Shown here piece by piece: positions 45,575-63,527 of a DNA stretch of 64,000 nucleotides. How positions within the stretch are numbered: position 1 is the stretch's first letter; every line of letters begins with the position of its first letter. The stretch spans positions 32,001 through 96,000 of IMG/VR virus record IMGVR_UViG_3300032229_000759. One strand, written 5' to 3'. Source of the stretch: a virus. Both the position numbers and the translations under genes were made by a program. The notes under the pieces are model-generated. The model was not told the origin of the DNA and ran no database searches. It worked only from the letters and a program-made list of their open reading frames with translations.

Positions 45575-45581
45575 ATACACC
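45575..45581 (-). promoter_or_regulatory. Intergenic GGTGTAT motif upstream of phoH (candidate phage promoter)
   Basis: - strand reads GGTGTATATTAATG; the core recurs in three other gaps. Confidence 0.45.
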
Positions 45582-48315: not shown

Positions 48316-48322
48316 ATACACC
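48316..48322 (-). promoter_or_regulatory. Intergenic GGTGTAT motif upstream of nrdJ
   Basis: - strand reads GGTGTATAGGTTTA. Confidence 0.4.
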
Positions 48323-54797: not shown

Positions 54798-57521
54798 TTA
54801 TTCGAGATTGTCTACACAACTGTTATCTGATGTAATTTCACCAGCCACGTTTCCATAATTGCATGAGCCGCTTACAAACACAGCATTACCTAGTACAGAA
54901 CCATAATTATTAGAATAGTTGATAAAATAACCAGAAGATTGAATCGTACCATAATTGTTTGATCTTGAAAAAAATCCACGATTTAAATCTCCTTGGTTCG
55001 TGCTGGAACTAAATGTACCAAACTGTACCTTACCAAAGTTATAACTATCGCTATTAAAATAACCTTCTAGCAAAGCTCCAAAATTATTACTGTTAGAAGT
55101 AAAATAAGATGTGGTTTTGGTGTTTCCGGCATTAGTAGCATTATTAAAAGTAACGACACCCACATTGTCTAGACTGCCACTATTTGTTCCAAAATAGAAT
55201 GACACATTACCGGATCCAGTGATATTGCCCTCGTTGTTTGCTAAAACCCCACTAAATGTAACTGTGCCATTTAATTTAATGTTATCTTTATTTTTACTGG
55301 AGTCATTAAACAATAAATTATTAGCATTATTAATACTACCTAAATTAATAGAATAATTATAAAATTTAATATTTTTTTGTTGAGACTCAATACTTGATAA
55401 GTTTTGACTATAATCAAAAAATTCTATAATAGAACCGTCTATATCTGACTTATTAGATGAAAAATTATAAAATTTAGCCCTAGATAAAATGTTACCCTCG
55501 TTAATTCCACTATTAATAAAAGTACCTAAATCAACTTCTCCTCTGTTGATAGAATATAAGCCAAATTGTGCTTCATAACAGGTTTTATAGTTAATAGCAT
55601 TTTCAGAAAAAAAACTAGCAGATAAACCTGTTCCATAATTTTGACTATTTCCAATAAAATTGACTAGGTTCGCCATGCCATAGTTTTTGCTTTCATTTCC
55701 AAAAATAGCAGCCTCTATTACGGATCCATAATTCTTACTAACATTATAAAATGATCCATTTTTAATTATACCACTATTAACACTACTTCCACTAAAATAA
55801 CAAAAATCACCCAATCCTTGATTTATGCTGTTGCCATTAAAATACATATTAACACCACTGCCATCAACGTCCGACACGGATCTGTCATAAAAATTACCCA
55901 GAGACTGTATTTTATTTGAGTTTTTAGATTGATTATAAAATGATCCAGAAAGACTGACTATCTTTTTATTAGAACTACTGTCATAAAACAATCCGTGTCT
56001 TATGGTTCCAGAATTAATGCCGCTGCTATAGAAATATCCCGAGCCTTGGCTAATATTACCGCTTGCGCCATTATTTGATCCGTTATAAAAATATATTTGT
56101 CTACCGTTTATTGTTCCTAGGTTATGTGATTGGTTGTAAAAATAAATTAAATTGGAACCATTAATACTATTATTATTCAAAGCTTTACTATCAAAAGCGA
56201 TGTTTTTGGCTTGATTAATACTTCCTTTATTTGGAGAGTTTTGAAAAATACAATTAGTAATATCTGTAACATTACCCCTATTTTCACAGCCAGATTGAAA
56301 TATGCATGTATTAATCTGAGATAGATCGTTTTCATTATGAGAATTATTTAAAAATTCTATTTTTATACCGGAGCCGGTAATATGTCCATTGTTTGTAGAA
56401 AAATCTGAAAACTGAATATTGCAAGTAGCGTCACTAGAAATGTCACCATTATTTGAAGACATATTAAAATTGATAATACCGATGCCATCTATTGATCCGC
56501 TGCTAGCATTTGCAGAATTTCTGAAGTCGCAGGAGCCACTCGTCAAAGTACCGTGATTGGTGGAATATTCTAAAATTGAATTGCCTAAAACTTTACCATA
56601 ATTGTTAGCAAAAATAAATTTAGTATTATTTAAAAGCTTGCCATAATTAGATGCATTCCCACTAAAAAGACTTAAGCCATCTACAGCTCCATAATTAGTA
56701 GAAGATCCTAAAAATTGACTATAGCCAGAAACGATACCGTAATTATTAGAATCAATAAAAATAGTAGGACCCACACAAGTACTATAATTATTACTACCAG
56801 AAAAAACAACAGGACCACTTAAAACGCCATTATTAGTACTATTAATAAATAATAGTTTGCCATCAAGAACTCCGTTATTTGTGCTGTTGTCAAAAGTAAA
56901 ATTACCATATCCACTAGCAATAGATATCGAGTTGTTAATAAAACTAAATGTGCCATCCAACAAAATGCCACTATCTTGAATATCGCAAGCGTCGAAGATG
57001 CCAGAGGTGCTTTGTATAATATTTTGAAATTGTTCTCTTCTTTTAGTTATGTCTGTATTAACAAACTGAACAGTCTCTGTGCTGATATAACAGTCTTCGA
57101 GTTGCGAATTCAAGATGAGTCCCGACTTAGCTATATCTAATACAGTATGTTTAATAATTCCACTATCTATAGATAAAGATGCAATAGACCACTCACACAC
57201 GCTGTCTGATTCCCAGTGTTCACATAGTATGTAGGGGTCTATAATTAATATCTCCCCTTCCATTCTCTCGCACCCAAAAGAAAAATAAACCGGGTCTTCT
57301 GGATCAATTAATGTACCAGCTATAATTTTTAAATTAGTAAATTCTAATAAAGGTATACGATTAAAACATGAATCAATAGATAAATTTAAAATATAATTAG
57401 TCGGTATAATGCTTGCATCATCTATTTCATTTCTGGGAATAGCTCGGTTTGGTTTTGATAACTGATCGTCTTTGTACCAATTATTAGGATTACAAAAGAC
57501 TGGAGAAGACGGTTGTGTCAT
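54798..57521 (-). CDS. Asn/Gly/Ser-rich beta-solenoid repeat protein
   Basis: Dozens of ~15-18-aa F-x(2,3)-S-x-N-x-G repeats over ~700 aa. Confidence 0.65.
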   Translation of the reverse strand: MTQPSSPVFCNPNNWYKDDQLSKPNRAIPRNEIDDASIIPTNYILNLSIDSCFNRIPLLEFTNLKIIAGTLIDPEDPVYFSFGCERMEGEILIIDPYILCEHWESDSVCEWSIASLSIDSGIIKHTVLDIAKSGLILNSQLEDCYISTETVQFVNTDITKRREQFQNIIQSTSGIFDACDIQDSGILLDGTFSFINNSISIASGYGNFTFDNSTNNGVLDGKLLFINSTNNGVLSGPVVFSGSNNYSTCVGPTIFIDSNNYGIVSGYSQFLGSSTNYGAVDGLSLFSGNASNYGKLLNNTKFIFANNYGKVLGNSILEYSTNHGTLTSGSCDFRNSANASSGSIDGIGIINFNMSSNNGDISSDATCNIQFSDFSTNNGHITGSGIKIEFLNNSHNENDLSQINTCIFQSGCENRGNVTDITNCIFQNSPNKGSINQAKNIAFDSKALNNNSINGSNLIYFYNQSHNLGTINGRQIYFYNGSNNGASGNISQGSGYFYSSGINSGTIRHGLFYDSSSNKKIVSLSGSFYNQSKNSNKIQSLGNFYDRSVSDVDGSGVNMYFNGNSINQGLGDFCYFSGSSVNSGIIKNGSFYNVSKNYGSVIEAAIFGNESKNYGMANLVNFIGNSQNYGTGLSASFFSENAINYKTCYEAQFGLYSINRGEVDLGTFINSGINEGNILSRAKFYNFSSNKSDIDGSIIEFFDYSQNLSSIESQQKNIKFYNYSINLGSINNANNLLFNDSSKNKDNIKLNGTVTFSGVLANNEGNITGSGNVSFYFGTNSGSLDNVGVVTFNNATNAGNTKTTSYFTSNSNNFGALLEGYFNSDSYNFGKVQFGTFSSSTNQGDLNRGFFSRSNNYGTIQSSGYFINYSNNYGSVLGNAVFVSGSCNYGNVAGEITSDNSCVDNLE

Positions 57522-57536
57522 ATAAATTATATTATA

Positions 57537-59114
57537 CTAGGGTTTAAAATATAAAGGACCCATATTATCATTTAATAATTTATATTTATGTATAGGATAA
57601 AAAGGTCTATAATCTAAATTTTGAGCAGGGAAGCCGTCTACTAGGGACAATGCGACTATTAAACCAAATGCTCGTTGTCTGTCTGAGCACTCAAAAGGAA
57701 CACAAGATCCTTGTTCTGTACAACCTCTGGTCCTGTTTTGATCTTCTGGTAGACAGGGCGGTGGGCAATATTGATCTTGACAATCTATAAAATCAGGAGC
57801 CCTATTGAATCTTGTTATACAATTTAAGTGACTTTCTGTGATTAAAAAACTACCCGGAGGAATAGGTCCCCAACTAGGTTCTCCTCCACTATTCCATTCT
57901 CCCCAACTATTAGCTATTAAAAAAACACATTCTGGATATTCAATTTTAGTATCATCGTATCCTATAATATTATATGTATGATAAATATTTTTATCTGGAT
58001 AAGTTAAACCTGTTGAGTCCCTCTGGTCTGGAAAACCCACGTTAGTAAATAATAAAACACCATATCCATTATATAATAAGTCTTTAACACTAGAGATAAT
58101 ATTTGTTGTAACAGCAGATATCGTTCGTGCTCTCTGTACATTTTTAAGATCCTCTACATTGCCGTATGAATCATAAAAAGATTTTTGAGTGTCTTCTTCG
58201 TTTTGTTTTTTAATTTCTATAACAGTATTATTAATATAATCGTAACCATTTAATGATTGAAAATGTTTTAGAAACATGTCATTATGACAAGCATAAAAAT
58301 TAGATCCTGTATTATTAATAAAATTAGCATAACCCCCATAGCTTTTTCTTTTTAGTATACCTATGTGTTTCAAAATTTTATCAATCCAACCAGACAAAAC
58401 ATTTCCTCCAAATAAATTGTCTTCAGTCGGTACTAAATACGAAAAATCAAACCGACTTGTTCCTGGACCTCCACAACATTCATTGATTCTGCGAACACAA
58501 TCTCCACCACAACAAGGGTTGTCACCAGTATCGTCTTCCGGACAGGCTCCACAACTACCGCATATTTTACTCCCATCTTCAGCTAAACCACAGGAGTGCG
58601 GCGCTCCAACTGCACCAATAATTGTACCTCCATTTTTTGTATTTTCTATACAACTCATATCCCCACAGCCAGTAGCCCTACCAGATAAATTTGTTTCTGA
58701 TATAATATCTGGTCCTAGCATCATCAAACAATCCCAAAGAGAATTACCACAAAAATATTCTAAATATTCCGTCGCCATTCGATGCTCCCATTTAGTATAT
58801 GACCTACTAGCTTCTATGGCACACGCTCTGGCGAGATCACAGCCGTTTCGTACAGCATGGGACGTTCCGCTTTTAATAGTGGGTTGAATTTCTGTAAAAG
58901 CTCCAGCATCTATAGTGGTCAAAAACTTGTAGGGTAATCCTAATTGGTTAGCTCCGCTACCATCAATTTTTTGAGAAATTTTATTATAACATGGATACTT
59001 CACATGTTTCAAAAATTGTACCATCCTTATCAAGTCATAAGGAGTACCCACACCCTCATAATTTATACAGGGGTTTAAAGAATATTGATAATATAATTGT
59101 TTGGGTGTTAACAT
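57537..59114 (-). CDS. Papain-like (C1) peptidase homologue lacking the catalytic Cys, with Cys-rich inserts
   Basis: Aligns with 60398-61324; EIQPTIKSGTSHA replaces ERQVTGDCVSHA; H..IIGYDD and IANSWG retained. Confidence 0.75.
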   Translation of the reverse strand: MLTPKQLYYQYSLNPCINYEGVGTPYDLIRMVQFLKHVKYPCYNKISQKIDGSGANQLGLPYKFLTTIDAGAFTEIQPTIKSGTSHAVRNGCDLARACAIEASRSYTKWEHRMATEYLEYFCGNSLWDCLMMLGPDIISETNLSGRATGCGDMSCIENTKNGGTIIGAVGAPHSCGLAEDGSKICGSCGACPEDDTGDNPCCGGDCVRRINECCGGPGTSRFDFSYLVPTEDNLFGGNVLSGWIDKILKHIGILKRKSYGGYANFINNTGSNFYACHNDMFLKHFQSLNGYDYINNTVIEIKKQNEEDTQKSFYDSYGNVEDLKNVQRARTISAVTTNIISSVKDLLYNGYGVLLFTNVGFPDQRDSTGLTYPDKNIYHTYNIIGYDDTKIEYPECVFLIANSWGEWNSGGEPSWGPIPPGSFLITESHLNCITRFNRAPDFIDCQDQYCPPPCLPEDQNRTRGCTEQGSCVPFECSDRQRAFGLIVALSLVDGFPAQNLDYRPFYPIHKYKLLNDNMGPLYFKP

Positions 59115-59151: not shown

Positions 59152-59158
59152 ATACACT
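59152..59158 (-). promoter_or_regulatory. Intergenic AGTGTAT motif upstream of the pseudopeptidase
   Basis: - strand reads GAGTGTATTATATCAT. Confidence 0.4.
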
Positions 59159-59173
59159 CTTGTAATATTTTGA

Positions 59174-59422
59174 CTAATTTGTTGTTAGCTTATTATATAA
59201 CACTAGTGATAAAACAGCCCCTGCTGCACCAGCAAATAAACCGGCTGGAGACAATGAATCGTAACTACCTATTAAATATAGAATAGCTCCACCCATATAG
59301 GATCCAGCTACGCCTAAAGCTACGGTTTTTATAAATCCAAAATTCTCTTCTCCGGGCACTATGCTTTTAGCAATAGATCCCACGAATAAACCATAAACAC
59401 ACCACACTAATAAACTAAACAT
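59174..59422 (-). CDS. GlsB/YeaQ/YmgE (transglycosylase-associated) membrane protein
   Basis: GLFVGSIAKSIVPG, LGVAGSYMGG, AAGAVL; three TM helices. Confidence 0.82.
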   Translation of the reverse strand: MFSLLVWCVYGLFVGSIAKSIVPGEENFGFIKTVALGVAGSYMGGAILYLIGSYDSLSPAGLFAGAAGAVLSLVLYNKLTTN

Positions 59423-59813
59423 TTGCTGTCTCCACTAGGGTTTGTAGTTCTTCATCCGTGAGGGTTTCTCCGTTGTCTAAAAGACTATTAACTATTGACA
59501 AAGAATATTTATTATAATCATCAGGCTTCATTTCTCTTCTTAAGAGTTTCTTGATTCTCATTTTAGTAAACCATCCTCGGCGAACACTATACTCTTTTAC
59601 TTGTTCTCCATATAATGAGTATTTCTCGGATAGTGAGCAATCTTTATTCAATTTATTTTTATTGCATTCTTGTAGTATTCTTATCAAAGTAAGTATAATA
59701 CTAATTATCATCAAAATAGTAAAGGGGTCGAAACTATGATTATCATTCTTAGGAAGATTAGACTTCTCTAAAACTTTTAATGCAATATTTTTAAGTTGTT
59801 CTTTATTATCCAT
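59415..59813 (-). CDS. Putative membrane protein
   Basis: Hydrophobic segment DPFTILMIISIILTLIRILQEC. Confidence 0.55.
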   Translation of the reverse strand: MDNKEQLKNIALKVLEKSNLPKNDNHSFDPFTILMIISIILTLIRILQECNKNKLNKDCSLSEKYSLYGEQVKEYSVRRGWFTKMRIKKLLRREMKPDDYNKYSLSIVNSLLDNGETLTDEELQTLVETANV

Positions 59814-59815
59814 TA

Positions 59816-60139
59816 TTATTTACCTTGTGGCTTTTTAATAGGGCAAACACCATTGGGACAATCATTTTTGACTGGGGCAGCCGCGGCTTGAGTTGACAAT
59901 CCTTGTTCTGGTTCGCAATAATTACACTCTATTTTTTTAATACCATCACCACTCATATACCATCCCTTGCCTTTGCAAACGGGACAATCTTTGCGCTTGT
60001 GTTTAACAACAGCGTTGTCTGAATGCTTGCTTTTAATAATAGCTCCAGCAAGTGTTACTGGAGCGGTCGTAGATCCATAATATGGTCCGCTGAACCATAA
60101 TAATGAAACACCCAATAAACAAATAATGCTTTTATTCAT
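59816..60139 (-). CDS. Signal-anchored protein with DnaJ-like CxxCxGxG zinc finger
   Basis: N-terminal hydrophobic segment, CPVCKGKG..CNYC, C-terminal CPNGVCP. Confidence 0.6.
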   Translation of the reverse strand: MNKSIICLLGVSLLWFSGPYYGSTTAPVTLAGAIIKSKHSDNAVVKHKRKDCPVCKGKGWYMSGDGIKKIECNYCEPEQGLSTQAAAAPVKNDCPNGVCPIKKPQGK

Positions 60140-60140
60140 T

Positions 60141-60344
60141 TTATTTTCTCCATGGAAGAGGAACTATATTGTCTATAGTATCAACCACTTTTTTAAGAGG
60201 TCGTGGACGATTAGGTTTATTTACTGGGGGATTGTCAACTTTAGGCTTTGGAGATAGTTTGATTATTAGATTAACCAAACGTTCAAGAACACTTACTATC
60301 AGATTTACGAGACCTCGTATTTTTAATCGATCTCTAAGATTCAT
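60141..60344 (-). CDS. Small basic amphipathic protein
   Basis: AAGGAG Shine-Dalgarno before ATG 60344; 67 aa. Confidence 0.55.
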   Translation of the reverse strand: MNLRDRLKIRGLVNLIVSVLERLVNLIIKLSPKPKVDNPPVNKPNRPRPLKKVVDTIDNIVPLPWRK

Positions 60345-60371
60345 AGAATACTCCTTATGGTATATATTATA

Positions 60372-60378
60372 ATACACC
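60372..60378 (-). promoter_or_regulatory. Intergenic GGTGTAT motif
   Basis: - strand reads GGTGTATTATAATATA, followed by an AAGGAG Shine-Dalgarno. Confidence 0.5.
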
Positions 60379-60397
60379 ATTAATAGCAGTCTAATAA

Positions 60398-61324
60398 TTA
60401 TAGATAATCATCAAATCCGTAGTCTGGTAGTTTTTGTACAGGAAAGCCGTCAAAGTTGCTAAATGCGTATGCTCCGTTTTGAGCCAGCATACCTTTTGCT
60501 ACATCTGCATGGATTAAAAAAGAACCGTCTGGGATAGGACCCCAATCTGGATGTCCACCGTCGTTCCATTTACCCCAACTGTTTTGAACCAGGAATGCTA
60601 ATTCTCCATTAGTATCATCGCATGCTGTCCATGCCATAGCATGTGCCCATGAGCCAGACTGTTTAGCAAAACCTTTTTTATCTCGTGTGCTACTGAATCC
60701 ATAACTAGAACAAACACTTAATCCATAACCATTAGCTAAAGCGTCTCGTGCTTCTTCTACTGTTCTTACAAGACTGACTGTTTTTATTTGATGGTCATTT
60801 GCTAAATCTATAACGGGGTCTGGCAATCCTCGACCACCCCATCCTGCTCCAAGCATACCTTGATACTTAGAAAGATCTACAACGCCCTTATAGTTTTTCC
60901 TTACTAAAACACCACCATACTTACTCACAAACTCTGCTGCTCTAGCACAACTCATACCCTGTCCGCCGTGTCCACGAGCACCGTAAATCCCCTCTGTTGC
61001 GCCCCTGGCTATCCAACTCTCTCTATCTGCATGAACATCAATTTCTACTGCTCGACTAATATCACAAGCGTTTCGTGTAGCATGTGAAACACAATCTCCA
61101 GTAACTTGTCTTTCATTATAAGGATGTTTATCAAACTTTAAAACACTCTTATAGGGGGTTGACAACTTGCCTTTTCCTGTGCCGCTTACTCTTCTGCTAG
61201 CATCACCAAATAATGGATATTTAGACACCTCCATTAAATGGTCATATACGTGAGGCTCCCAAAGGCACCCGCTAAATCCTTGACGATACTGATCGTATAA
61301 TTCTTTTGGAGTAAAACGTGGCAT
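60398..61324 (-). CDS. Papain-like cysteine peptidase (C1 family), catalytic residues intact
   Basis: QVTGDCVSHA (Gln, Cys), WAHAM (His), LVQNSWG (Asn). Confidence 0.85.
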   Translation of the reverse strand: MPRFTPKELYDQYRQGFSGCLWEPHVYDHLMEVSKYPLFGDASRRVSGTGKGKLSTPYKSVLKFDKHPYNERQVTGDCVSHATRNACDISRAVEIDVHADRESWIARGATEGIYGARGHGGQGMSCARAAEFVSKYGGVLVRKNYKGVVDLSKYQGMLGAGWGGRGLPDPVIDLANDHQIKTVSLVRTVEEARDALANGYGLSVCSSYGFSSTRDKKGFAKQSGSWAHAMAWTACDDTNGELAFLVQNSWGKWNDGGHPDWGPIPDGSFLIHADVAKGMLAQNGAYAFSNFDGFPVQKLPDYGFDDYL

Positions 61325-61815
61325 TATTTACTAGCCTCATTATAAGCCCAGGCTAAAGCATTAAAACCCTCTACTGCCTTAACTCTTAGGTTAGAAGTTA
61401 AATTAATGTTATCATCCCCGATACTTGCTACAATAACTTCTTTAGCTTCTTTGGGTAGATCAGCATACTTACCCTTGATGTCTAATCGTAGCATAACACC
61501 GGCTATGCTATTAGCTTGACGAATTTCATCAGTATTTTTGATTACTAAATCTTCACCATCTAGTTGTACTAATCGGCCCAAATCTATGCTTAAGTCTCGT
61601 AATCTTTTGAAATCGTTTTTTGAACCATTAGAAGCTTTTAACAAATTAATTACGTCTTGTGCTTCTTTCTTAACATTTTCATCTGATGGAGATACCAATT
61701 CCATGACATCTATATTAGTAGGATTATTATTTCCTCTTAAAAAATTCAAATCAAATTTAGACAAGCCTAATATGATTAGTAGACCAGCAATCGCTAGAAT
61801 AATTTTATTATTCAT
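61324..61815 (-). CDS. Signal-anchored helical protein
   Basis: MNNKIILAIAGLLIILGL N-terminus; TAATG-coupled to the peptidase. Confidence 0.6.
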   Translation of the reverse strand: MNNKIILAIAGLLIILGLSKFDLNFLRGNNNPTNIDVMELVSPSDENVKKEAQDVINLLKASNGSKNDFKRLRDLSIDLGRLVQLDGEDLVIKNTDEIRQANSIAGVMLRLDIKGKYADLPKEAKEVIVASIGDDNINLTSNLRVKAVEGFNALAWAYNEASK

Positions 61816-62186
61816 TTGACTTCACCTTCTTTATTGGCACAGATCGTGGGACTAAGATAGGGAAACATTTGATCAGCAACCTTCACGGCTTCTGCACAAC
61901 CATTTTGTACTGCTAGGTCTCTGGTCTGTTTCCAGCTTACGACTAATTTAAAAAATGTATCTTCGTTGATTTTAGAAGCTACATTATCAAAAGCTACTGG
62001 TGGAATGGTAGGAGTTATTGACTTAATGCCCTTAAACTTATCAACCAAATCCGCTACTAGTTTTTGAACTGGACTGAGTTTATCTTTAAATAAAACCCAT
62101 AGTACTAAGCCCATACCGGCATATAGGGCTAGGTCTGTGCCACTCACCCTGCTACTAAACTCTTGAAAGCTTTCTGTAAAATTCAT
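61812..62186 (-). CDS. Single-pass membrane protein
   Basis: TM segment LALYAGMGLVLWVLF. Confidence 0.55.
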   Translation of the reverse strand: MNFTESFQEFSSRVSGTDLALYAGMGLVLWVLFKDKLSPVQKLVADLVDKFKGIKSITPTIPPVAFDNVASKINEDTFFKLVVSWKQTRDLAVQNGCAEAVKVADQMFPYLSPTICANKEGEVK

Positions 62187-62200
62187 TAGATTATTCCTTA

Positions 62201-62629
62201 TTATTTTTCTGATATTCTGGGTTTAACATTAACAAATGCGTTAGCTTTTATAGCCGGATCAACAAATACGCCAGTATTTCTAAAAGTAGTTACCATCGCG
62301 TCAATTGTGGAACTTACCAAAATCATAAGAAATGCTTTGACATACTTATGTATAATAGGTTCTAAGAGATTTGGCACAAAGGGAATATCTACTACTATAA
62401 AAACACTATCATAGAACTTATTCAATAATTCCATAGCGATAGCTTTTTTATCTTTACCAGCTAAATCTGACGACGTACTTTCTATGGTCTGAATAATACT
62501 AGCAACAGCTAATTGCAAAATTTTCCATGCTTGAGCTAAAGCTACAACTTTAATTTCATTCAGAGATATTTTTGCTTGATTTATTAGTTTTTCTAGTTCT
62601 AGGTTTATTGCTTCTTTTACTGTTAACAT
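62201..62629 (-). CDS. Hypothetical protein, possibly holin-like
   Basis: AGKDKKAIA motif and amphipathic helices, reminiscent of LL-H-type holins. Confidence 0.4.
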   Translation of the reverse strand: MLTVKEAINLELEKLINQAKISLNEIKVVALAQAWKILQLAVASIIQTIESTSSDLAGKDKKAIAMELLNKFYDSVFIVVDIPFVPNLLEPIIHKYVKAFLMILVSSTIDAMVTTFRNTGVFVDPAIKANAFVNVKPRISEK

Positions 62630-62912
62630 CTTTTTTACTCCTATCGTTAATTTTATTTGCTATGTTTCGTTCTTGTTGACTTGCTGTATCCCACCAAGTT
62701 TTTTTAATTTCTTTTCTACTATTAATATACTTATATAATATTGCTAATTGACCACCAATCAAAATCATACTTTCAACACCATGACTGACATCACGAATAA
62801 GATCTTCTTTTTGGCTGTTCTCTCCTATTAAACCTATTAGATATAAACCACTAAAAATAAAGCTTACTGCTGTAAACCAGAATTCGCTTGTACGATAACC
62901 CGGCTTTACCAT
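62556..62912 (-). CDS. Putative holin
   Basis: KPGYRTSEFW, two TM helices and a very basic C-tail; GGAG Shine-Dalgarno. Confidence 0.55.
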   Translation of the reverse strand: MVKPGYRTSEFWFTAVSFIFSGLYLIGLIGENSQKEDLIRDVSHGVESMILIGGQLAILYKYINSRKEIKKTWWDTASQQERNIANKINDRSKKDVNSKRSNKPRTRKTNKSSKNISE

Positions 62913-62952
62913 ATTTAATCTCCCAAATGTTACATTATATAATAAACAAAAA

Positions 62953-63150
62953 TTATAAAGTATCTACTGATTTCACAAAAATACCATTATAGAATCTGTT
63001 GTCATATTTAGCTTCTATTCCACTCATTGCTGGATTATTTTTAACATAATAATTATATGTATTATATTTACCTGTAAATGTAGTAGTAGTTACCGAAGAA
63101 CCATTTTTAACTGGATTACCAGAAACTGCTGTTTTAATATCGTTTGCCAT
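62953..63150 (-). CDS. Small hypothetical protein
   Basis: 65-aa ORF filling a gap in the operon. Confidence 0.5.
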   Translation of the reverse strand: MANDIKTAVSGNPVKNGSSVTTTTFTGKYNTYNYYVKNNPAMSGIEAKYDNRFYNGIFVKSVDTL

Positions 63151-63155
63151 AAAAT

Positions 63156-63473
63156 TTACCTTTCTATTCTATCTTCTAGGGCTTCTAAAGTTTTACCAAG
63201 AGTTGCTATTTGAATTTTAAGCTCGTTCATGACTTCTGTATTACGTTGTAGTGCATTTGCAAAAACTGTTTGATTTTCTTTATTACTATTTAATCTTTCC
63301 ATAATAAATTGTCTATCGTGTAAATAGGGAGATTGAGTTTCTATCATATGAGTTACTTCTGTTTTTGTAGCCATATTTTTACCAATAGACACCCAAAAAC
63401 CAACCATTGTTACAATAATACCAATGCTTGTTGTTGCTATGTTTTCCCAAAAATGTATGATTGTATCACTCAT
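63156..63473 (-). CDS. TM + coiled-coil protein (XhlA/holin-accessory-like)
   Basis: N-terminal TM IGIIVTMVGFWVSIG; C-terminal heptad repeats; GGAG Shine-Dalgarno. Confidence 0.55.
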   Translation of the reverse strand: MSDTIIHFWENIATTSIGIIVTMVGFWVSIGKNMATKTEVTHMIETQSPYLHDRQFIMERLNSNKENQTVFANALQRNTEVMNELKIQIATLGKTLEALEDRIER

Positions 63474-63490: not shown

Positions 63491-63527
63491 ACTAAAAGCC
63501 AACGACACTCAAGGCATCATTGGCTTT
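63491..63527 (-). terminator. Intrinsic terminator-like hairpin
   Basis: - strand AAAGCCAATGATGC-CTTGA-GTGTCGTTGGCTTT (14-bp stem with G-U pairs), then TAGTT. Confidence 0.65.

Follow-up and report, generated by a model that had tools for sequence, protein, structure and literature searches.

In the textbook view, lysis by a tailed phage needs a peptidoglycan hydrolase, and a cassette in an uncultured virus raises the question of whether a protease may take that place. The cassette consists of eleven packed or overlapping open reading frames (ORFs), with Shine-Dalgarno-like sites, on the minus strand at positions 59174-63473 of a 64,000-nucleotide stretch of DNA. We call this stretch the window; it covers bases 32001-96000 of the 112,254-bp IMG/VR virus record IMGVR_UViG_3300032229_000759, and positions below are those of the window unless a genome or a locus is named. 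A first-pass annotation had described a lysis-like set of mostly membrane-associated genes around a papain-family (C1) peptidase. As it stated, the eleven frames are open and packed, most of their products show transmembrane (TM) or signal features by hydropathy, and the peptidase is the sole recognizable hydrolase among them. The peptidase and its catalytic codons are as follows.

60398-61324, minus strand: C1A (papain-family) cysteine peptidase of 308 amino acids, assigned by its AlphaFold (AF2) fold and invariant residues; no signal peptide
61106-61108, minus strand: codon of Gln73, invariant in 56 relatives
61091-61093, minus strand: codon of the catalytic Cys78, an invariant column and an intein site in homologues
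60641-60643, minus strand: codon of His228, invariant in 56 relatives
60581-60583, minus strand: codon of Asn248, within the consensus NSWG motif

The AF2 model of the peptidase (predicted local distance difference test [pLDDT] score, 94.8; predicted template modeling [pTM] score, 0.93) shows both lobes of the papain fold (the helical L domain and the beta-barrel R domain) and a helix that begins at residue 78. Its best structural neighbor in the VIA comparison was xylellain (3OIS; Z score, 20.9; root mean square deviation, 3.0; 231 aligned residues). Procathepsin B, pro-Der p 1, procathepsin X, and procaricain scored between Z 17.6 and 19.2 and Cwp84 scored 16.7, while staphopain, streptopain, and C39-like peptidases were far lower (Z of 9 to 11); the top 20 rows were C1 structures throughout. 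Foldseek returned 248 matches at an expectation value (E) of ≤0.001, with C1A structures leading (E = 2.5e-9). With C1A structures as its best neighbors, the enzyme is not of the CHAP or NlpC/P60 type, as had been proposed. The zymogen alignments took in model residues 4-70, and the N-terminal ~70 residues of the model look like the end of a C1 pro-region.

Searches of the 308-residue sequence against Pfam (E ≤ 0.1), PHROG, and PDB sequences gave no match. In the Atlas, PF00112 was found on 12% of the members of one near cluster, and another near cluster was automatically named "Peptidase C1A papain C-terminal domain-containing protein". Its place in C1A is that of a divergent member, supported by the fold and the motifs and not by a profile match. 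Across 56 relatives of 31-52% identity, Q73, C78, G123, H228, and W250 were invariant, S249 was nearly so, and NSWG was kept; the Cys codon at 61091-61093, singled out earlier as the mark of an intact enzyme, is that of the invariant Cys78. By papain numbering, the Gln-Cys spacing is one residue shorter than papain's. A word-indexed search yielded 2,103 homologous proteins, mostly ~80% identical, and clustering at 50% identity gave 1,439 representatives of the family. The median identity of the peptidase across 80 close loci was 81%, versus 54-63% for most neighboring cassette genes. These results leave us with little doubt that the 308-residue ORF encodes what we predict to be an active, zymogen-like C1A cysteine peptidase.

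The catalytic residues were further marked by inteins, which belong to homologues (among P0121-P0267) and not to the window copy. Many homologues run to 640-1040 amino acids and align with the query in two or three segments, and Pfam Intein_splicing, Hom_end_hint, and LAGLIDADG_3 matched the homologues P0121, P0122, P0130, and P0160. With slashes marking the junctions, inteins were inserted at Cys78 (TGD/C...HN/C78-VSH, at least 12 representatives), at His228 (SWxH228/C...HN/CMAW, six representatives), and at Asn248 (FLVQN248/C, one representative); some homologues had two. Inteins on each catalytic residue indicate that no other positions of this important gene are under stronger constraint. 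Papain-type (C1) proteases are unusual as intein hosts.

We then looked for a canonical endolysin, the absence of which had been part of the earlier description. A six-frame Pfam search of the record gave no Phage_lysozyme (PF00959), Amidase_2 (PF01510), SLT (PF01464), M23 (PF01551), Amidase_3 (PF01520), or M15_4 (PF13539), and ORF-by-ORF Pfam scans of the record gave no muralytic family among the best 25 families of each set. In five complete genomes of close relatives, 13 families were searched, and none of Phage_lysozyme, Amidase_2, SLT, M23, Amidase_3, GH25, GH19, VanY, CHAP, NlpC/P60, M15_3, GH108, and Hydrolase_2 was found above threshold; the GH19 and GH108 negatives had no working positive control and show little. 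The sole exception was a sub-threshold NlpC/P60 match of 15 bits within a 906-residue ORF of one close relative. Six of the 13 families were likewise absent from 20 distant records that bear the peptidase module, six of which are at least 98% complete. As a positive control, the same search found GH24 (E = 2e-23) in a cultured 223-kb Caulobacter phage, a jumbo siphophage. The description thus held in the record (six families), in the complete relatives (13), and in the distant records (six), and within the 13 Pfam models the peptidase is the sole lytic-enzyme candidate of the complete relatives.

If the peptidase is a lysis enzyme, with what does it work, and where? The gene directly upstream encodes a putative partner.

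61324-61815, minus strand: signal-anchored helical partner of 163 amino acids, with an N-terminal TM segment by hydropathy

The stop codon of the partner overlaps the peptidase start by 1 nucleotide, and of the 58 partner homologues listed from related loci, 51 stop at the base where the peptidase match begins; we predict that the two genes are translationally coupled. The AF2 model of the partner shows a TM helix and a five-helix bundle (pLDDT, 86). A muramidase hidden in the partner was considered and rejected, the protein being a helical bundle with a best Z of 6.8 and no Foldseek match at E ≤ 0.001.

We compared this arrangement with a distant set of 88 loci, in which the peptidase is 37-57% identical to P0204. 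A signal-anchored protein (clusters c3 and c6) stood at position -1 in 48 of them, and a cluster of signal-peptide thioredoxin-domain proteins (Pfam E = 7.8e-11) stood at +1 to +3 in 64. Among 150 peptidase representatives, 14 had an N-terminal extension of at least 100 residues starting with a TM segment. A hidden Markov model (HMM) of the partner family matched the N-terminal extension of six fused peptidases (E = 1e-5 to 2e-8), and the HMM of the exported-thioredoxin cluster matched the C-terminal extensions of four peptidases. In P0174 (651 amino acids) all three parts are fused, and P0165 adds an intein; the contigs that encode the fused proteins are metagenomic and 2 to 34 kb long. In profile-profile comparisons of the partner with the distant clusters, the best matches were two upstream-partner clusters, at a probability of only 12-16%, and we therefore base the link between the partner and the distant upstream clusters on the fused proteins.

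The fusions indicate that the partner, the peptidase, and the thioredoxin-type protein work together. Furthermore, the unfused thioredoxin partners carry signal peptides; together with the fusions, this suggests that the peptidase is probably a membrane-tethered enzyme at work outside the cytoplasm. The synteny of the original cassette fared unevenly: the peptidase and exported partners are linked or fused in distant relatives, but the small membrane proteins appear to be conserved in sequence in the close clade only. As read from these sequences, the real evidence for a functional coupling is the fusions and not the synteny. Taken together, we consider it probable that the peptidase module works on the envelope side.

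How might such a module lyse a cell? It would comprise the anchored helical partner, the peptidase core, and an exported thiol-redox protein. Having no signal peptide, the peptidase would build up in the cytoplasm until a neighboring small membrane protein opened the inner membrane and let it reach the periplasm. There the anchored partner would dock or activate it, and the exported redox protein would keep Cys78 reduced. The peptidase would then cut stem or cross-link peptides of the peptidoglycan, or structural proteins of the envelope, and thereby stand in for the muralytic endolysin not found in this phage clade. In the lineage of the window the thioredoxin lies ~14 kb off, and a CxxCxGxG protein occupies the usual thioredoxin slot. 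It is from genomic context that we infer the compartment of the unfused form, the timing of its action, its substrate, and its role in lysis, and on that basis we put the chance that the peptidase is the endolysin equivalent at about even.

Several observations weigh against a role in lysis. The window peptidase has no export signal, and the same holds for 110 of the 150 representatives. None of the small membrane proteins has a holin or spanin match better than E = 0.006; a profile-to-profile comparison with the distant-locus clusters recovered only the flanking gene c8 and a dCMP deaminase, and sequence conservation of the small membrane proteins appears to stop at the close clade. For tens of kilobases the gene order (GT4 ... 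c8 ... peptidase ... ribonucleotide reductase [RNR], PhoH, RecA) matches that of a distant relative, so that part of the conserved synteny is lineage collinearity. The cassette sits in a block of replication and nucleotide-metabolism genes, and the predicted promoter motif of its second half is common to phoH and nrdJ. Endolysins seldom show such high conservation or carry inteins, and the absence of Pfam families may leave room for an endolysin of unrecognized fold. Moreover, in the chromosomes of two species of Mucilaginibacter (L170:4799-8936 and L172:4705-8951), a peptidase of this family that lacks a signal peptide is encoded after genes for GT87, GT2, and a polysaccharide deacetylase, and this cellular, nonphage context indicates that the peptidase family is not tied to phage lysis everywhere.

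The alternative that survives best is that the module remodels the envelope during infection while an unrecognized enzyme lyses the cell. The peptidase, the exported thioredoxin, and the trypsin- and subtilisin-like proteases of the phage would trim host surface or periplasmic proteins, possibly for receptor destruction, superinfection exclusion, the disabling of envelope defenses, or nutrient release. The fusions, which put the peptidase outside the cytoplasm, would suit this role equally, as would the further exported proteases encoded beside an exported thioredoxin, the position of the block among early- or middle-type genes with a promoter-like motif common to phoH and nrdJ, and the presence of the family in bacterial chromosomes within polysaccharide gene clusters. 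We nonetheless think it unlikely: the 11 records of at least 98% completeness yielded no other enzyme for lysis, and the missing export signal of most copies is more in keeping with release that depends on a holin than with secretion early in infection.

It is less likely, in our judgment, that the peptidase is an accessory factor for the last step of lysis, of the spanin or LysB type, cutting protein tethers or outer-layer proteins (outer-membrane lipoprotein links, an S-layer, or disulfide-linked outer proteins) while an unrecognized muralytic enzyme degrades the peptidoglycan. Its fold neighbors include Cwp84, an S-layer-processing C1 protease (Z of 16.7); the thiol-redox pairing would suit disulfide-linked protein substrates; and family members occur beside an exported partner in Planctomycetes contigs of metagenome-assembled genomes (MAGs). 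Such a role requires a hidden endolysin, however, for which the same searches gave no candidate, and we noticed no lipoprotein or o-spanin-like gene in the cassette, for which no systematic search was made.

A cytoplasmic protease for host takeover or for the processing of phage proteins, including virion maturation, set among membrane genes by chance, is very improbable. In its favor are the missing signal peptide of the window copy and most homologues, the very high conservation with inteins typical of core enzymes, and the zymogen-like N terminus suggestive of regulated activation; against it are the predicted translational coupling to a signal-anchored protein and the fusions that join the peptidase to a TM-anchored partner and to thioredoxins of an otherwise exported type. 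A prohead protease in particular is unlikely, a ClpP-type head maturation protease already being present elsewhere in the genome.

Lysis by the peptidase would call on the small membrane proteins of the cassette, whose remaining features are, from upstream to downstream, as follows.

63495-63527, minus strand: hairpin of 14 bp and a T-rich tail, immediately upstream of where the cassette's first gene starts
63156-63473, minus strand: 105-residue protein with one TM segment and a coiled-coil-like C-terminal part, by hydropathy
62953-63150, minus strand: small soluble ORF of 65 residues, in 50 of 80 close loci
62556-62912, minus strand: 118-residue KPGYRTSEFW membrane protein with a TM segment and a basic C-terminal tail, by hydropathy; in 77 of 80 close loci
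62201-62629, minus strand: 142-residue GKDKK protein with two hydrophobic segments, by hydropathy
61812-62186, minus strand: 124-residue protein with a weakly hydrophobic N-terminal region, in 77 of 80 close loci
60366-60393, minus strand: promoter-like site TAGACT-16-TATAAT containing GGTGTAT, directly after the peptidase stop
60141-60380, minus strand: 79-residue ORF, a doubtful or variable gene, in 23 of 80 close loci
59816-60139, minus strand: 107-residue protein with a CxxCxGxG...CxxC motif of the Zn-ribbon or DnaJ type, from the translation
59415-59813, minus strand: 132-residue single-TM protein, by hydropathy
59174-59422, minus strand: 82-residue GlsB/YeaQ/YmgE-family protein with three TM segments, by Pfam Transgly_assoc

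Apart from the 79-residue ORF, the cassette genes keep the same order in 50 to 80 of the 80 close loci. The first of them (63156-63473) is the most conserved of the small genes (median identity, 82% in the close loci); it matched phrog_1009, of unknown function, weakly (E = 0.003), had no Pfam match, and by its architecture alone could be a class III holin or an i-spanin. The KPGYRTSEFW protein, with no Pfam or PHROG match, is likewise holin-like in architecture only. The GKDKK protein matched phrog_6918, "holin", weakly (E = 0.006) and had no Pfam match. The genes of these two proteins overlap by 74 nucleotides (62556-62629) in different frames, with good ribosome-binding sites in both.

Downstream of the peptidase, the annotated start of the 79-residue ORF overlaps the promoter-like site, and its true start is more likely Met13 at 60344, with an AAGGAG site ahead of it. 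The 107-residue protein (59816-60139) occupies the slot held by exported thioredoxins in distant relatives, and a profile comparison with those thioredoxins showed no similarity. It had weak Pfam matches to DnaJ_CXXCXGXG and Lar and matched phrog_12574 (E = 1.4e-5); its N terminus looked signal-like on reading of the translation, and the hydropathy scan gave no segment there. The GlsB/YeaQ/YmgE assignment of the last gene (59174-59422), made at first sight of the sequence, was upheld by Transgly_assoc (E = 7.3e-6; 26.6 bits versus a cutoff of 25.3), and its median identity in the close loci was 77%.

The promoter-like site at 60366-60393 would split the cassette into two units. Its GGTGTAT motif also precedes phoH, nrdJ, the peptidase paralogue described below, and the trypsin-like gene; as GGTGTAT(T/A), it stands in minus-strand intergenic gaps at 60372-60378, 59152-59158, 48316-48322, and 45575-45581 and at genome positions 107296-107302, partly overlapping a TATAAT-like hexamer. 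Genome wide, GGTGTAT occurred nine times on the minus strand and seven times on the plus strand, so that the word alone is not enriched and it is its placement before starts that is notable.

Two further sets of genes of the same phage are related to the module. The first begins with a paralogue of the peptidase.

57537-59114, minus strand: 525-residue peptidase paralogue, recognized by BLASTP (E = 6e-23 and 3e-15) and by hmmalign to the family profile

The paralogue has Gly in place of Cys78, with Ser beside it, keeps the His and Asn-Ser-Trp, and carries two Cys-rich inserts; by its sequence it may be a pseudo-peptidase or else a variant that uses Ser. A GGTGTAT promoter-like site of its own (59152-59158) precedes it, and a 907-residue Asn-rich repeat protein (54798-57521) follows. 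The second set includes the thioredoxin ~14 kb from the cassette, which has a signal peptide, a WCKYC motif, and a Pfam match at E = 6.8e-14. This thioredoxin, a trypsin-like S1 protease with a signal-like N terminus, and an S8 subtilase stand in a row (L006:11541-13749; genome positions 105541-107749), which looks like a second protease-plus-redox set of the same phage.

What kind of phage carries these genes? The plus-strand block of the record holds tail genes, including a 4,009-residue tape measure and fibers of 1,455 to 3,160 residues. The tape measure lies ahead of the window (L004:1080-13109) and implies an exceptionally long tail; fiber-like proteins of 3,160, 2,699, 1,752, and 1,455 residues come after it. 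A long minus-strand block encodes a split DnaE, DnaB, RecA, SSB, PhoH, dUTPase, an RNR-like gene, and glycosyltransferases, with the cassette next to them. Past the window end follow the S8 subtilase, the trypsin-like protease, ClpP, RuvB, RIIB, a sigma factor, and the thioredoxin. Capsid and terminase genes are missing from the record, and no tRNA genes were found in it; in some lineages, TerL and portal genes come after the module block. Relatives with a 78-99% identical peptidase are complete genomes of 223-244 kb (L007, L020, L028, L037, and L049), three of them with terminal repeats. Because these close relatives are of that size, the record represents about half of a jumbo siphophage genome, and the CheckV completeness of 81% is an overestimate.

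The MAG bins that hold close copies were labeled Flavobacteriales (two), SAR202, Dehalococcoidia, and Promethearchaeota, which are bin labels and not host evidence. Among 50,697 cultured phage records, tblastn detected no counterpart of the peptidase, of two distant homologues used as further queries, or of c8, the gene upstream, and megablast of 24 kb of the window against cultured phages was likewise empty; the closest cultured-phage TerL match was 25-28% identical. The homologue P0222 used as a query against genome contigs gave no match, and our literature searches found no description of the peptidase module.

Lysis by the peptidase would have consequences beyond this record. The clade is widespread, with more than 1,400 peptidase clusters at 50% identity, and the tested muralytic families were not found in the genomes examined. 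We put forward tentatively, as a possibility, that an abundant clade of uncultured aquatic tailed phages (~80 to 245 kb) does without muralytic endolysins and lyses its hosts by a C1A protease and redox system that cuts peptide links or disulfide-stabilized envelope proteins. In that system the peptidase, either released into the periplasm or anchored there, would dock to its membrane partner and be served by the exported thioredoxin. If this were true, protease-redox lysis would join endolysins and single-gene inhibitors of wall synthesis as a third enzymatic way of lysing the host. Were the module the lysis enzyme, the catalogue of phage lytic mechanisms would grow, many uncultured phages annotated without an endolysin would be accounted for, and envelope-active enzymes with a redox switch of their own would become available as a new class. 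Through the fusions and the intein positions, the catalytic residues, the interface with the partner, and the compartment become accessible to experiment.

Finally, we compared the module with known systems. Its enzyme shares the fold of xylellain of Xylella fastidiosa (3OIS) and of the C1A zymogens (procathepsins B, L, K, and X, pro-Der p 1, and procaricain; Z of 17-21, 231-249 aligned residues), with the same Gln, Cys, His, and Asn-Ser-Trp set and with an N-terminal segment that aligns with the end of the pro-region. Unlike them, it is only 11-19% identical in sequence and has no PF00112 match, lacks a secretion signal and a long I29-type prodomain in cis, and is phage encoded, with a separate anchored partner.

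With the holin-endolysin(-spanin) cassettes of lambda (S-R-Rz/Rz1) and T4 (t/e), the locus shares a signal-less soluble hydrolase amid small membrane proteins, and as in lambda, terminase and portal genes follow directly on the block in some relatives. Unlike in those cassettes, the hydrolase is a C1A protease and not a glycosidase, an amidase, or an M15, M23, or CHAP peptidase; the membrane proteins have no assignment to a holin or spanin family; anchored and thioredoxin partners are conserved; and the lytic function is a predicted one. Its C1A fold places the peptidase in no known muralytic catalytic family.

CHAP, NlpC/P60, and LysA N4/N5 enzymes are likewise clan CA Cys-His enzymes, used by phages on peptidoglycan peptides. 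The first-pass view that CHAP and NlpC/P60 are the only papain-fold endolysins proved too narrow: the N5 domains of mycobacteriophage LysA are papain-family, C39-like domains (PMC3314691), and BFVD holds C1-fold proteins of uncultured phages named "Peptidoglycan binding-like", "N acetylmuramidase", and, in many cases, Peptidase C1A, names that serve as leads only. By analogy, a papain-superfamily peptidase that acts on the wall would not be unheard of. The CHAP, NlpC/P60, and LysA enzymes are minimal papain cores fused to wall-binding or glycosidase domains, unlike the window peptidase, and the C39-like structure 3ERV is a fold neighbor at Z = 10.2, far below the C1A structures.

Signal-anchor-release (SAR) endolysins of the P1 Lyz type are regulated by thiol-disulfide isomerization. 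By analogy with P1 Lyz, fused members of the peptidase family have an N-terminal membrane anchor, and the module includes thiol-redox chemistry; unlike P1 Lyz, the enzyme belongs to another class, and the window peptidase has no anchor of its own. Cwp84 of Clostridioides difficile is, like the window peptidase, a C1A peptidase, and it acts on an envelope protein, processing the S-layer precursor; it differs in being secreted, in having lectin-like and cell-wall-binding domains, and in being a housekeeping enzyme of the host rather than a phage enzyme. What is new beside these systems is, in genomes in which no glycosidase or amidase was found, a full C1A enzyme that has a pro-like segment together with anchored and thiol-redox partners.

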